Shown: positions 997 through 62,275 of the stretch, piece after piece | Layout of the letters: each line of letters starts with the position of its first letter | How positions within the stretch are numbered: the stretch's first letter is position 1 | NCBI GenBank assembly: GCA_951406725.2 | Contig: OX597814.1 | Location: 119,164,001 to 119,228,000 of the forward strand | Reading direction: 5' to 3' | Length of the DNA: 64,000 nt | Source: Octopus vulgaris | Taxonomy: Eukaryota | The notes under the pieces: generated by a model | Databases searched by the model: none | What the model was told of the DNA's origin: nothing | The model's input: the letters and a program-made list of their open reading frames with translations, nothing else | Translations under genes and position numbers: made by a program

Positions 997-1578
997 TATT
1001 GGGGGAATTTGCAGTTTAAATTAACAATCAAAATACAAAGTGAGAGGACACTTAGCAAATATCAATTACATTTTAAAATATAGCAATGATATCTTTCATT
1101 ATTACCGCACAAATAAATGACCAGCTGTTTACCATCTCATTTCTCGATCTCTCTATGTTAGAACTCCTAATATACGATGACCTCTTTAAACTTTTCTTCG
1201 TAAATATATTGTTTAGGAAACATAACTTCCTTCCTTAGCAATCATTAATCTATGTCTCTTATAACTTTTCATTGAAGATATTAGTTATTTTCGTGTGTGT
1301 GTGTGTGTGTGTGTGTGCGCGTGCTTCTGTGTGTGTTTGTGTGGGTGTGCGTGTTTTCTTTGTATTATCATTAACCTTCAGAATATGTCAATATTTATGT
1401 TGCCTCCAATGATGCTGTTTCTCTCTATACAGTCACGTACTTTGTAACAAGTAATAAATACATTATTTTTACCAATATTTTTAGAAATTACTATTACACG
1501 CACACACAGAGACATATATGTATTTCAAATATTTATGCATATATGTATTTTAAAATATTTATGTATGTATGTATGTAT

Positions 1579-3169
1579 CAACGAGAGCCAGGTGGAGTTC
1601 TGTAATGTCGACACAGAAGAACTGGGCCTCCTACTTAGACTGACATATAATAGTGAATACTTAGATAAACATAATCTTAGTAGTTTCTGCCCCAGTAGAT
1701 GTTTAAGAGGTAGACCGCCTACAATTACTTCTATGGCTAGGAAGACACATATAGAAAGATGGCGCGGATGGACCAGAGCCATACGGAGCCCCGCAAATGT
1801 CCATCAGGTAAAGAAAATGATCGCACATGCACTAGGAGCTAGTATAAGAGTTACCCTAAAAGGCCACACATTTAAATTTAATAATAAAATATATGCCCAG
1901 GACGAGGGGGCAGCCATCGGTGTTAGTATCGCTGGTGATGTGGCCAACCTCTTCATGGTATGGTGAGACAGAAGGCTTAAAGAATGCCTACTGCAGAAAT
2001 CCATACTCGTAAACATGTACTCTCGCTATGTTGATGATATCAATATAGTAGTAAAGGCACCCCCACAAGAGAGTACTGTTGATATAGTAATAGAAACTAA
2101 TACTATGGAGAGCATCCAGCAAATAGCTAACTCCATCCACCAGAGTATTAAGGTCACAATAGACTACCCCACTAAACACCCCAACCATAGACTACCAGTA
2201 CTAGACACTGAACTCTGGCTAGAAATTGTGAAAAATAAAACCCAAACCCAAATCCTTCATTCATACTATGCAAAACCTATGGCCTCAAAATACCTGATCC
2301 ACCGGAACTCAGCCATTGCGGGCAATGCCAAATTCAATATTTTGATGGCAGACCTCGTCAGAATAATGAGAAATGTGTCACGCATGTGCGAGCCTACAGA
2401 ATTAAAGAGACACATACAGTATTTCATTCACCGCATGCAGTTCTCAGGTTACAGCCATAAAGAAAGGATCAGAGTATACAAAGGAGCCATGAAAAAATTT
2501 GATAATATATTATGTAATGATAGGAATGGGATTTGCCCACTCTATAGGAACAAGTCATGGAACACTATAGAAAGGACAAAAAAGAAAATAGGGAAGGCCA
2601 ACTCTTGGTATGATAGCCATAAATACCAGAGTGTCATGTTCGTTGACACCACCCCTGGAGGTGAACTAGCGTACCGCTTTAGAAGGACCCTAGATAAACT
2701 TAAACTAAGAATTAAGGTTGTTGAAAAGCCAGGCAACCCTATCAGATCTATAATTGGTAGAAGCTATCCTTTTAGTAGAACTCTCTGTACGGATAACTAT
2801 TGCACTGTATGTAGATTTAGCCCACAAACGAACTGTAAAGCCAGAAATGTGGTCTATAGTATAAGATGTATAGAGGGACAATGCAGTAACAAGACAGTAA
2901 CATACGTAGGGGAAACTGCAAGAAGCATTGGTGAGCGGGTGAATGAACATTGGAGACAACTCAAGGAAGGTAAAAGCTCATCGATTCTGTACCAACACGC
3001 CGAACAAGAACACGGGGGATCAATCAATAACATAGAGATTAAGATATTGTCCACACATAGAACAGATGCAACAATTAGACAAATTACAGAAGCTACACAT
3101 ATAATAGAAAATAAACCTAGCCTGAATAGAAAACTAGAATGGAGCAATAGCGCACACCACAACATATGA
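1579..3169 (+). pseudogene. Penelope-like element RT + GIY-YIG endonuclease ORF (Naiad-like), 5'-truncated, one in-frame TGA
   Basis: ORFs 1535..1966 and 2015..3169 share a frame and are separated only by TGA at 1964-1966. Motifs: QDEGAAIGVSIAGDVANLFMVW*D (RT motif B), YSRYVDD (motif C), LPVLD, Cys-rich linker CTDNYCTVC..C, VVYSIRC...[16 protein letters not shown] (GIY-YIG), EATHI..KPSLN. RT motif A is missing (truncated at a (TATG)n repeat). Confidence 0.93.
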
Positions 3170-7320: not shown

Positions 7321-8618
7321 TATTAGTTTCGAACACAGCAGCTACAATAAAATATATACTTAACTGATGAAATCAGAACAAAGGCGAAATGTGTTCCAAT
7401 ATGTCTCTTATATTTGTCCAACGTAATACGCTATATGCACAAGGCTATGATAGTCAATTAAAAATCAAATCAATATTTGTTAGTGACTAAAACCTACACG
7501 TTTCTCCTCACAGGTATAGTGACTTATAGTCAGCTCATTGAAATTCCACAGATTGTGTTCATGCATTTTATGCCTGTCTGGAATTATATGATAAAATCAA
7601 ACAAAAAATGTTACTGTAACAAACAGGAAAATGAAACTACTTTAGTCATTTTTCAAGACGTTAGTTATATCATAGTTTAGCTCTTTCCAAATATATAAGA
7701 AATAGGTGGAAAAATAAAACTAAAGCAACTGTAAATAGAGCTGAATATAAAGAAAGTTCGGTAGAAAATGCCCATTTAATTGCATTGGATTTGATGGGGA
7801 CGACGTTTATAGATTATAATACCACAAACGAATATCAAGATACGGGATTTCAATATACTATTCTGAAGCTAATGAACATGTTTAAGAAACCAAATTTAAG
7901 GTATTTTATTTGTTCCTTTTATCGACTTGTGTTCCATTATCATTCATTGTTTGACCCGTATTTCTATACTGCTTGCAACTCCACGAATAGCAGGTGATTG
8001 ATATATGCGTCTTTATCACATCATTAACTATTCTTACTGCAAGAATTATCTACCGATATTGTGATGCCATTAAAGATGGCAATTATGCAAGGTAAATGCT
8101 TATTTCTTCAGGTTTCCTAACTCCTGTATCACTATCTATACCTCTAAGCCCTCTATTTCATATTCCTTACAACAGTTCACTTATCTATTTCGTTGCTATA
8201 CCAGTATCGCTTTTTAGCATAGGTTTAATGCTTTGTAGATATCATTTCTAAATTACTAATGCACTTTTGCTGTAGCTGCTACTTTCGTTATTGTTGCTGA
8301 TACTGGAATTATAAATATTACTTCCTTATCTATTACCAAACACTTCATATATTAAATCTACTTTTCTTCTAATTCCTTCCATCTTCATGCAGTTTCATTG
8401 TAAGCTGGTGCATTTAATGCATTAATGGCTACACGGGCATAGAGATTTTGCATATTCCTTTCGAACATAACATACCGTCCAGTTATTTCATCATTATCAC
8501 CGACGTTATCTACAGAACGTCATCATCAGCTTCAGTAGCAGCCGCCACTTCCGCAGCGGCAACAGCAGCAGCAACAACAGTAGCAGAAACGGTAGCAGCA
8601 GCAACAGTAGCAGCAGCC

Positions 8619-8707
8619 GTCCAAGAATTTGAACCTGGAGATCTCCATTTCGAGCGACTTCGAGGGCCACCTCCCAGTGGTGTTGGGCGTCAACGAAGAG
8701 CCCTCGA
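8619..8707 (+). ncRNA. Candidate minimal (P4-less) HDV-like ribozyme
   Basis: P1 GTCCAA(8619-24)/TTGGGC(8683-88); P2 TCGAGGGC-C(8660-68)/GAGCCCTCGA(8698-8707, one bulged A); P3 ACC/GGT around L3 TCCCAGT; then GT, CAA in place of P4, and J4/2 CGAA (C8694). Folded by eye. Confidence 0.55.
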
Positions 8708-8820
8708 CTACAACAAGACGACCAATGTTTTTTTTCTAAGGTCTGGGGTCTCCCGGTCCTAAGCCCCAGACCATCATCTAATCACCCTTACCCGACTTGT
8801 AGCTTAACAACAACAACAAT
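8619..8820 (+). mobile_element. Short non-autonomous retroelement (SIDE-like) within CAG-type repeats
   Basis: GC-rich island between (CAG)-type repeats; 3' hairpin GGTCTGGGG/CCCCAGACC (8740-8772); ends in an (AAC)n tail. Confidence 0.55.
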
Positions 8821-8861
<41 letters not shown>

Positions 8862-19103: not shown

Positions 19104-20313
19104 CATCCCATAAATAATGCTGTGCTTTCAATTGAATGAACTAAAAGTCGGAGGGAAACGGAATAAATTACCTGCATCAACTTGCTATAATAGCAGGTAG
19201 TAAATTTTCCATGTAATTATTCTTATTGAATGTTTTGAAGAGTGCAGTTCGATTTCAACAGTTATTTTTTCAAAGCTACATTGGAAGTAACAAGATGCAT
19301 ATTCGGCATATTTTGCTTTATGAGTTCAATAAAGGCAACAACGCAGCGGAAAGTACGAGGAATATTACAGCAATACTGGGATCGGCCAATAAGCATAAGC
19401 AAGTGTCCAGTAGCTCCAGGAATTCTGAACCGGAAACTACAGCCTAGAAAATGAGCCTCGTTCTGGAAGATCTGTAGTGCTCTACGAGGATGCCCTACAA
19501 ACCCTGGTGGAACAAAATCCTATCTTGTTGAGGAACTAGCGGAGAACCTTGGATATAGTCATTCAACCATTCATCGACACTTACGTGCCATCGGAAAAGT
19601 CAGCAAATTGGATCAATGGGTTCCTCACAAAATTTCCGGGTCTAATCGCACGCAGAGACTGAATGTGTGCTCTTCTTTGCTGCCACGTCTCACGAATGAA
19701 CCTATTTTGGACCGAATAGGGAGTGATGACGAGACATGTGTTGTCTATAAAATTGTCTTGCACCGAAGACAGTGGGTAGAGAATGGAGAAGCACTGGCAC
19801 CCCAGGCTAAAGAAGGTCTTCACCCACGTAAGTTGTTGTTATCTGTTTAGTGGGATATGAAAGGTTTAGTCCCCTTGAGCGACTTAAGTCAGTGCTAGAA
19901 GAAAAACGACGAGCTTTTGTTTCAAGACGAAAACTGTTCTTCCATCAGGATAATGCTCGACCACATATAGCGAGGACGACATTCCAAAAAGTTTGAATGG
20001 AAAACCATATTCGCCGAACATTGCGAACATTGCCGCAGCTGTTTATCATTTATTTCGCAATCTTCAAAATCATTTGGACGAAAAAAATACGAATTCTGTA
20101 GAGGAGGTCTGAACAGTACTGCAAGAGCATTTTTTGTCACGGAAAAGTGAATTTTGGAAGAGACGCCTTGCAACTCTACCAGATAGATAGAAGAACATTG
20201 TAGAAAATGAAAGATAGTATATCTTGGATTAAAAAGGAAATTTGTTTATCGCAATTTTGAAACATAAAAGAAGTATGAAAAACAAAAACGAATTATTTAT
20301 GGGACGACCTAAT
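19098..20313 (+). mobile_element. Mariner (Tc1/mariner) DNA transposon, decayed and internally deleted
   Basis: TIRs GGTCATCCCATAAATAAT (19101) / ATTATTTATGGGACGACC (to 20309), in (TA)n. Transposase fragments: MHIRHILLYEFNKGNNAAESTRNI, WVPH, DET, HPRKLLLSV*WD, FHQDNARPH, LQNHLD; stops and frameshifts. Confidence 0.93.
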
Positions 20314-32112: not shown

Positions 32113-32317
32113 CGATAGGTGAATGAATTATCCTATGTTTACCGTGAACATGGATAATTCGATGAACCAATACCAAGGTAGCAAATTCACGTCAAAAACA
32201 CGGTTGGAACGACCTATCCAAGGGTAGAAACTTCGGGTTCATGTGCAGAAATTTGTGTGTTATACATGAATAACTAAATAAATGGGGTTGAACGAAGATG
32301 TTAACAAAATTCATTTA

Positions 32318-32385
32318 CTTTCGACATATGTTTCGAAGACAACATGGAATAAATGGTGCACGATGCAATCTTCTCATCAGGAAAG
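32318..32385 (-). ncRNA. Canonical minimal type I hammerhead ribozyme
   Basis: RC: CTTTC-CTGATGA-GAAGA..TCTTC-GAAAC-ATAT-GTC-GAAAG. All three stems pair; stem III ACATATGT is a perfect palindrome; GUC site. Confidence 0.88.
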
Positions 32386-33114
32386 AAAGGGATCCTCTCT
32401 CAACAACAAGACAAAATAATAATTGCGATGACTGCCTACATGGTAAACAAAACGATAATAAGTGTTTTAAAAAACCCGTTAGTAGAATTGACGTCAAAGT
32501 CATCGGTACCGATGTCTTCTTCTATATAGGTGCGTCCACTTCCCAGTTATCCAAGATAATTTCAAACCATTATTCATCATTTAGGGATAGTAAAAAACGA
32601 CATAGTACAGGCCTAAGTAAATTAGTTTGGCGTCTTAAAGACAATAATATAGATTTTAAGTTAGATTGGTTCATACTGTCTGTATCCTTTCCTTTTGATA
32701 AGGGCAGGAGATTTTGCAACATTTGCAACTCTGAACTCTTCCATATTCTCTTCTCTAAGGATCCCCTTGTAAACACACTTACAGAGAAATCGTACAAATG
32801 TAAACACTGGCAGAAACATACTTTTTACTCATATAAATGATTTCGATAGTCATTATAGTTTGAACAATTAGTTTAACGTGCACTCCACTTCAATAGAGAA
32901 ATTCTTTCCTAAGCCTTTGAACAGTATTTTAATCAACTTACCCCTCCCTCTCTATTTGTTCCCTACTTATTATTTCTTTAACCCTTCTCTTCCTACTATC
33001 TAACTTTGACGTCAATTCTACTAAAGTTTTTTTTTAAACACTTATCGTTTTGTTTACCATGTAGGCAGTCATTGCAATTATTATTTTGTCTTGTTGTTGA
33101 GAGAAGCTCTCTTT

Positions 33115-61515: not shown

Positions 61516-62275
61516 CAGAGACCTGGGTGTAATTGTTGATGACACGATCTCAGTTTGAGTGCACACATCAACATGAAGGTCGATATAGCTCGTAGGATGA
61601 GTTCCTGGATCTTAAGAACTTTCCGGTCCAGAGAAGAAGGTGTCATCATACCACTTTTCTCCTCCTTTGTACGGCCACACCTCGAATATTGCTGCCCACT
61701 GTGGTCTCCCCATACAAGACAAAACATCTCCAGGATTGAGTCACCCTAGTGGGCACTCACTAAACGAATTTAAGGCATGGCTGCTCTCGATTATTGGGAT
61801 CGCCTTAAAGCCTTTAAACTTTACTCTCTCCAGCGTCGCCGTGAGCGGTACATCATTTGTACGATGTGGAGAATATACCACCAACTTTGCCCAAACGACC
61901 TTAACATTAGCTTCAAGGTTCATCCAAGACTGGGACCACGGGCCATACGTCCCCTGCCCAATTCAAGATTACAACATACATGTACACTGCAACATAATTT
62001 CTTTTCCTCAACAGGCCCTGCCCTATTTAACATTGTCCCGAGGGAAATCAAAGAGGAAAAGGATCCCATCAACTTTAAACGGAGTCTGGATAGATTCCTT
62101 CAAAGAATACCAGATAAGCCACCCATAATTGGATACAACTCACCCAACAAGAACTCACTACTTGAATGGACCATAAACAAAACTTGACTTAAACAGGATT
62201 CGAATAATCCTATCAGGCGGTGCTATTAAGTTAGACATGGCCTGGACCAATCTTTGGTCGAAACATATCTAAGTT
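61516..62275 (+). mobile_element. CR1-clade LINE 3' fragment (RT C-terminus + 3' UTR), pseudogenised
   Basis: [93 protein letters not shown]; stops and frameshift; 3' hairpin; flanked by (TA)-rich repeats. Confidence 0.92.

Follow-up and report, generated by a model that had tools for sequence, protein, structure and literature searches.

A short octopus retroelement with both ends in common with an RNase H-bearing LINE and a predicted HDV-like ribozyme head whose P1 is split

Short, ribozyme-headed derivatives of Ingi-clade LINEs are established in trypanosomes, where the cited passages describe the NARTc, RIME and SIDER elements (PMC3185411, PMC4035085, PMC4748587, PMC5814959). Judged against these passages, the octopus element reported here resembles NARTc beside L1Tc, RIME beside ingi, and SIDER in being, in all likelihood, a short non-coding derivative of a LINE that bears RNase H and a 2A motif. 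Its head also resembles Pr77, the head of L1Tc, in that the ribozyme runs from the first base, P1.1 is a single pair, CCACC precedes the loop and GTG follows it; target duplications are a further likeness. The same passages show differences as well. The L1Tc ribozyme (L1TcRz) has a P4 and, going by the text, lacks an insertion in P1, while L1Tc and NARTc end in poly(A) rather than (AAC)n, reside in trypanosomatids rather than in an animal, and have promoter activity that was shown directly.

More broadly, bipartite non-autonomous LINEs are described for the RTE, Ingi, Vingi and R2 clades, with a ribozyme proposed for RTE, Ingi and R2 (PMC5786205). In these elements, as in the octopus element, whose 3′ end and 5′ end are both common to a coding LINE, the two LINE ends are joined by an internal deletion and there is no Pol III head; the passages cited from that paper contain neither a fold nor end-to-end pairing, and octopus is absent from their examples. 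Another likeness is to R2 ribozymes and R2 SIDEs, whose 5′ end has an HDV fold and which include P4-less silkmoth forms and non-autonomous derivatives, but according to these passages R2 is rDNA-specific, has large insertions in J1/2 or L4, and builds P1 from one segment of ~7 nt (PMC3774820, PMC6765202). Where R2 SIDEs insert at the 28S rDNA site, copies of the octopus element are dispersed and their flanks unrelated. An earlier reading of this DNA made from its letters alone (the sequence-only reading) had placed P4-less forms mainly in microbes and phages; the silkmoth R2 and an abalone ribozyme place them in animals too (PMC3774820). Finally, drz-Agam-2 and other ribozymes with a large P1.2, which are of retroelement type, carry a peripheral helical domain near P1, but P1.2 of drz-Agam-2 lies in J1/2 between P1 and P2, whereas here the hairpins break the 5′ strand of P1 three pairs from the cut (PMC4908430). 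In the literature covered, which excludes the main 2011 survey, figures, supplements and Repbase/Dfam, we found no account of the element, of a split P1 or of a cephalopod example, and none of end-to-end pairing or twin priming in Ingi or Vingi elements. The element type is known; the split-P1 layout and the pairing of the ends appear to be new.

Within the window, by which we mean the whole 64,000-nucleotide stretch that was analysed, one such element occupies a GC-rich island (52% GC vs 34% for the window). We consider it probable that this is one decayed copy of a 190-base element whose two ends are also those of an RNase H-bearing LINE, itself likely a member of the Ingi clade, and that its split-P1 HDV-like head is predicted to cut before G8616. 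Its overall features are listed here.

8616-8819, + strand: whole element, a member of family A, with a ~190-bp body (8616-8805) and an (AAC)n tail (8806-8819); non-autonomous and probably of Ingi type.
8602-8615 (left) and 8814-8827 (right), + strand: probable target-site duplication, with one mismatch and edges uncertain within the repeat.
8728-8735, + strand: T run, a Pol III stop; inverted heads stop just before it, and a T run also lies behind the arm in the family B copy L244.
8740-8772, + strand: 9-bp hairpin, seen in family copies and, in other copies, an insertion hot spot of a small DNA transposon.
8780-8819, + strand: 3′ end and tail common to the element and the RNase H-bearing partner LINE, from a pattern search.

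The element is one member of a dispersed family, family A. In the 2.8-Gb genome a 16-base core has 1,721 occurrences and its reversed control one, and a second motif has a single match in the 64-kb window. A DNA search of the genome returned 1,136 candidates, 40 of which were scored, with full-length matches at 91-94% identity. Among the first 30 core matches, taken unselected, 27 extend to the family start and 28 to its end; unselected copies differ from the 191-base majority by a mean substitution of 4.3%. Family A is non-coding, with target duplications and a simple-repeat (AAC)n tail, and its copies are nearly all full length. The element is also present in contigs of four runs coded as four other organisms (a single contig in one run), where loose ends pile up at its first base or the base before. 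The core count, the target duplications and the defined 5′ end bear out the sequence-only reading of a multicopy non-autonomous retroelement, and the tail and the 9-bp hairpin that it listed are both in place. Its proposal that trinucleotide repeats are targeted holds in part: CAG/CAA-type targets are preferred, with CAVCAVCA immediately upstream in 11/29 unselected copies vs 0.25% of flank positions, and the upstream flank ends in CA in 18/29, but many copies lie in non-repeat DNA. The preference is therefore real but not strict.

Several side observations concern the copies themselves. At L010:1146-1685 three copies stand head-to-tail, joined via a short match of the element's 5′ and 3′ ends. 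A search for a LINE continuing behind the 3′ hairpin gave 23 matches, comprising only rearranged copies, chance matches and transposon insertions; 13 of the 23 enter the end of a small DNA transposon lying within the element's 3′ hairpin, for example at G000 C7:22432416, C4:10139998 and C26:41155833 (L324, L326, L325). Three such loci were read, two with an insert of ~200 bp and an 8-bp duplication and the third in opposite orientation. The element is an insertion hot spot for this small DNA transposon, which we take to be a hAT. In the window, a 114-codon open frame (8418-8762, + strand) crosses the repeat and the element and looks incidental.

The start of the family was determined from 55 copies (59 examined, less 4 that had no called 3′ end). 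The bases G, C and C at 8616-8618 are present in 46, 46 and 47 of them, respectively. Duplications were detected by script in 41 of these copies; they end at offset 0 in 12, +1 in 7, +2 in 10 and elsewhere in 12, a scatter that arises mostly because the targets are repeats. At the non-repeat sites L017, L018, L032, L048 and L053, duplications of 11-15 bp stop exactly before G8616. From the copy counts and these clean duplications, the family begins three bases before G8619, which the sequence-only reading had taken as the first base and as the point at which 5′ ends should pile up. The 5′ end in DNA is thus fixed at G8616, and we infer cleavage as its cause.

A pattern that kept the 3′ end and excluded the middle of the element revealed a second family whose final 26-28 bases and tail are those of the element. 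This partner encodes an RNase H (PF00075, E 1.1e-11) and a C-terminal CCHC motif, and its full-length relatives, at 48% identity, encode APE, RT and RNase H. At three different junctions (L112, L157, L093) the head is joined directly to LINE parts. A search for a LINE continuing behind the head (66 matches vs 31 in the control) gave only rearranged copies, chance matches and transposon insertions. No full-length family A LINE was found in the assembly, in which the longest piece is ~1.15 kb; the autonomous parent is therefore missing or decayed in this assembly, and the 2A motif, endonuclease and reverse transcriptase of family A are taken from a sister, family B. In family B, the locus L221 runs from head through 2A-like motif, Cys-rich region, APE, RT and RNase H to the tail within a 12-bp duplication. 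Its frame is broken; a single long ORF with N-terminal 2A-like motif, APE and RT is seen in family B and in P0004/P0005.

By domain content only, the partner likely belongs to the Ingi clade; no named Ingi sequence was among the 120 matches listed. According to the cited passages, the Ingi clade is marked by 2A motifs in elements that lack an ORF1, and a mollusc Ingi carries such motifs (PMC3708506); Vingi elements are without RNase H (PMC13708176). The partner does not fit the Vingi clade in this respect, since RNase H is present. The sequence-only reading had drawn its comparison to R2, R4 and RTE elements, a frame that does not suit an RNase H-bearing, Ingi-like partner. Other LINEs were met in these searches. 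Loci L061-L066 and L077-L080 form a young, abundant family, presumably CR1, with intact 949-aa frames, 94-99% identity and an ATT tail. A third RNase H LINE family (L224-L232, L239; ~31% identity) has AAC-type tails and, at two loci, internally inverted pieces; heads were looked for in this family and not found.

The head of family A fits an HDV-like ribozyme on every testable feature except an unbroken P1 and a P4, and on this modelling self-cleavage is predicted. Its parts are as follows.

8616-8707, + strand: HDV-like ribozyme head, predicted to cut just 5′ of G8616 (from copies, fold scores and family B).
8616-8618, + strand: P1a, the opening 3 bases of the split 5′ strand of P1, predicted to pair with 8686-8688; same three pairs in family B.
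8619-8634, + strand: H1, inserted 6-bp hairpin; 170/180 cells paired across copies, one pair broken by A8632 in the window copy.
8635-8654, + strand: H2, inserted 8-bp hairpin; 237/240 cells paired, one pair broken by G8652 in the window copy.
8655-8658, + strand: P1b, the remaining 4 bases of the split 5′ strand of P1, predicted to pair with 8682-8685; G-C to A-U compensatory change in family B.
8659-8661, + strand: J1/2 linker, of which 8660-8661 can lengthen P2 by two pairs; 2-nt linker in family B.
8662-8668, + strand: P2 5′ strand; three compensatory changes in family B.
8669-8681, + strand: P3 (3 bp, 8669-8671/8679-8681) and 7-nt L3 (8672-8678); identical in family B, with a G-C/TCCAAGT variant in L253.
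8682-8688, + strand: P1 3′ strand, 7 nt and continuous, from copies and family comparison.
8689-8693, + strand: J1/4 GT (8689-8690) and 3-nt CAA (8691-8693); one-pair P1.1 C8674-G8689, CAA being a remnant where family B has a short P4.
8694-8697, + strand: J4/2 CGAA with predicted catalytic C8694; C in 28/30 copies, CGAA in 3/4 family B heads and in L253.
8698-8707, + strand: P2 3′ strand with bulged A8699; A in 30/30 copies and 4/4 family B heads.

The order is that of the HDV nested double pseudoknot (P1, P2, P3, L3, P3′, P1′, P1.1, J4/2, P2′) with a 3-bp P3. It departs from HDV in that the 5′ strand of P1 is interrupted, its seven pairs split 3+4 by 36 nt in family A and by 1 nt in family B, and in P4, which is 3 nt in A and a 3-4 bp hairpin in B. 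In family A the head is predicted to form a four-way junction with the two hairpins between P1a and P1b. The 7-nt L3, GU junction, one-pair P1.1 and CGAA are also those of the CPEB3 ribozyme, which differs in being single-copy and intronic and in having an unbroken P1 and a P4. U8672 and G8677 are presumably the positions of the conserved U-G pair of HDV.

Copies of family A support this arrangement. The split P1 is complete in 21/30 best-matching and 17/27 unselected copies (3 of 30 were skipped for indels), and every core feature is intact in 9 of those 27. One H1 pair occurs as C-G, U-G and U-A variants. In L3 the conserved U is found in 30/30 and the G in 29/30 copies, and the P1.1 pair in 27/29 cells. 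On the family majority, the split P1 scores -23.9 vs -11.3 kcal/mol for the P1 of the sequence-only reading, with pair probabilities of 0.96-1.0 when P2 is blocked. A core descriptor without P1 matches once in the window, at 8669, with no match on the minus strand, and it matches 5 of 20,000 shuffled versions of the element. P1 is missing from the plain MFE fold, which cannot accommodate the pseudoknot, so folding order matters. Rfam gave no ribozyme match at the locus or in L223, L253 and L025, which is uninformative since the canonical head of L253 has none either.

Much of the earlier fold stands. Its P2 strands (8660-8668/8698-8707), P3, 7-nt loop, GT, CAA and CGAA with C8694 are all found, and copies and family comparison support an HDV-order fold without P4. 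The J1/2 palindrome that it noted is present, but in the family it is part of H2. Similarly, P2 is not a damaged form of a perfect 10-bp helix that the consensus would restore, because C8668 and the bulged A8699 are constant in 30/30 copies; family B keeps the bulge. The window copy is decayed and, from its broken pairs in H1, H2 and the panhandle described below, probably a poor cutter. The cited passages report that P4 is dispensable (PMC3774820) and that a 1-nt J1/2 left little activity in another ribozyme (PMC4908430); the one-pair P1.1 and the loss of P4 could slow the predicted cleavage further.

Covariation of P1, P2 and P3 was sought at two levels. Within family A, whose copies decay from one master, none exceeded shuffles (240/500). 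A protein search with the partner RNase H region led to two further LINE families in the genome, and one of these, family B (42-53% identity), supplied four heads. P1 in these heads opens with the same three pairs as in A, continues with a single bulged base in place of the hairpins, and ends in four pairs, one of which has changed in a compensatory way. Three compensatory changes fall in P2, among them a flip from C-G to G-C next to the kept bulged A; P3 and L3 are identical to those of A, and a short P4 replaces A's three bases. In total, 4 of 17 core pairs differ between A and B, and all 4 changes are compensatory. Two family B heads are damaged: in L221 two P2 pairs are broken and J4/2 is changed, and in L233 the first two P1 pairs are lost. 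A relaxed scan of 79 metagenome loci gave one match, L253 (349-430), on an Ingi-like contig, tandem or circular, that encodes a 2A motif and an APE-RT-RNase H protein. This head is canonical, with an unbroken 7-bp P1, a 7-bp P2, a near-identical L3, GG, P4 and CGAA. A strict descriptor run on 18 of the 79 loci gave no matches, and neither did the core pattern in metagenome contigs. Cross-family covariation, based on one sister family with four heads and one outgroup, supports an HDV-order fold with a split P1. The simplest order for P1, read tree-free, would be unbroken, then bulged, then branched.

Other candidate heads fell short of this pattern. A loosened core pattern (14 matches vs 6 in the control) yielded a candidate new family on C17 (44493910, 56865805, 67601366, 79298224), rejected when three loci were read and proved to be a segmental duplication without a P1 partner or CGAA. 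Among 2A-bearing, Ingi-like metagenome loci, the 5′ ends of L246, L250, L256 and L257 have a P1-like 6-bp pair after CAA-rich flanks, and their cores depart from the usual HDV pattern.

A second feature may join the two ends of the element. In family A, ten bases behind the ribozyme are complementary to ten bases before the tail.

8711-8720, + strand: predicted panhandle 5′ arm; 280/292 cells paired across copies.
8793-8802, + strand: predicted panhandle 3′ arm; two mismatches in the window copy.

Ten 5′/3′ end pairs were tested. The complement is 10 bp long in both family A tests (reached by 4 and 5 of 200 shuffles), 15 bp between copies in family B, and 17, 19, 14 and 14 bp in L250, L252, L256 and its twin in L257, each with 0/200 shuffles. 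L221 itself reached only 7 bp, L253 9 bp (34/200 shuffles) and copy 1 of L257 6 bp; non-cognate 5′/3′ pairs gave 6-11 bp. In three metagenome families the partner of the complement lies 89-124 nt before the tail. End complementarity thus occurs in five Ingi-like families, in a search made after it had been seen in A and B, and is marginal in A.

The partner LINE shows a related arrangement. Of 37 partner 3′ loci (36 distinct), ten carry a long inverted head, two a short inverted one, two a direct one and 23 none, giving inverted heads in 12/36 distinct fragments. Of the ten long inversions, seven start immediately past the arm, at position 108-112 of the element; six extend to position 1 and none past it, although microhomology at the junctions leaves that end uncertain by as many as 4 bases. 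The same arrangement is present in two fragments of family B, and we take it to be the twin-priming pattern from L1 work. We infer that the stem holds the 5′ portion of the RNA close to the target, where the second DNA strand primes on it.

These observations suggest a life cycle. A host or element transcript would read through a copy; P1a and P1b would then stack across a four-way junction with two hairpins and no P4, in a fold that cross-family covariation supports, with C8694 acting as it does in HDV. Cleavage would leave the fixed 5′ end at G8616 that is seen in DNA. The stretch behind the ribozyme, complementary as it is to the 3′ end, may pair with it and so join the RNA ends. The endonuclease and reverse transcriptase of the partner would prime on the AAC tail at CA-ending sites, often CAG/CAA repeats, to give the short duplications found in the copies (11-15 bp in clean cases). 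A 5′ end held near the target would explain the frequent second priming behind the arm and the inverted heads. Taken at its fullest, this reading posits an active natural HDV-like ribozyme whose P1 is broken, three pairs in from the cut, by a perfect four-way junction. The Ingi-type RNA that carries it would be looped by clade-wide end pairing, which would bring the cut 5′ end to the insertion site and account for the full-length short copies as well as the one-in-three inverted heads; we advance this reading tentatively, at somewhat under an even chance.

The sequence-only reading had called the element promoterless, a term that finds no support given that the closest known head, Pr77 of L1Tc, is described as both promoter and ribozyme (PMC3185411). 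The head might instead be an internal Pol II promoter that sets the 5′ end, as in Pr77, with cleavage secondary or lost in family A. The fixed 5′ end is compatible equally well with this, the DNA data fitting a transcription start and a cut alike; in the cited passages the Pr77 promoter start coincides with the cut site (PMC3185411, PMC4748587), and family B is in register with Pr77 (CGACC at 16-20 and AGTG at 25-28, against CCACC and CGTG in the paper). However, the family A insertion shifts the motif 36 bases downstream and leaves GATC at positions 25-28, and the compensatory changes between A and B preserve RNA pairs, not DNA sequence. Promoter and ribozyme functions can coexist, and a promoter in place of a cut seems unlikely to us. 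A slightly smaller chance goes to a fold that is real but that its four-way junction makes catalytically dead or very slow, and that is retained to cap and protect the RNA or to bind the partner protein. A four-way junction can stack two ways, and the dependence on folding order noted above points in the same direction. P1 mismatches are reported to be uncommon and to impair cleavage in other HDV-like ribozymes (PMC3774820), and several folded SIDER heads did not cleave (PMC4035085, PMC5814959), as far as these passages go. Against a dead fold, the catalytic C, CGAA, the U and G of L3 and the count of seven P1 pairs are kept in A, B and L253, and the family has spread to >1,700 full-length copies bearing the head.

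Two further readings carry very little weight. In the original register the cut falls before G8619 and P1 is 8619-8624 with 8683-8688. This is indeed the predicted fold of the window copy alone (pair probability 0.78-0.99; -11.5 vs -10.9), a result of private changes at 8632, 8652 and 8684. That P1 is complete in only 5/30 best-matching and 2/27 unselected copies, the element starts three bases earlier, and family B is without 8619-8654, all of which make this register highly improbable. The element could also be an ordinary Pol III SINE, or an RTE, R2 or R4/Dong derivative, being short and multicopy with a triplet tail and target duplications; RTE and Dong-R4 are reported active in octopus in the passages cited (PMC13282606). 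It has no tRNA, no A or B box and no Rfam match, and it contains an internal T run. None of 20 reverse-transcriptase loci fetched and compared, out of at least 150 listed, matches the element, most being one young family with an ATT tail, and the family that does share its ends encodes RNase H. We regard this origin as equally improbable, and retain an Ingi-type derivative with a split-P1 ribozyme head.

Should the head prove to cut, P1 can accommodate a large branched insertion; the HDV fold is then wider than described, and genome searches that require an unbroken P1 have overlooked members. L253 with its unbroken P1, family B with a 1-nt bulge, and family A with two hairpins and no P4 form a natural test series. 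End pairing in Ingi-type RNAs, if true, would give a testable rule for how 5′ ends are handled; the sister Vingi clade is described in the cited passages as under development for gene insertion (PMC13708176). Host transcripts that read through any of the >1,700 copies could also be cut, the core being intact in about a third of them.

Elsewhere in the window, frames at 1448-3169 and 32292-32840 (both + strand) resemble, by eye, Penelope-type reverse transcriptase and GIY-YIG endonuclease. Also by eye, a mariner-like transposase fragment lies at 19455-19850 (+ strand) and a LINE C-terminal fragment at 61774-62187 (+ strand).
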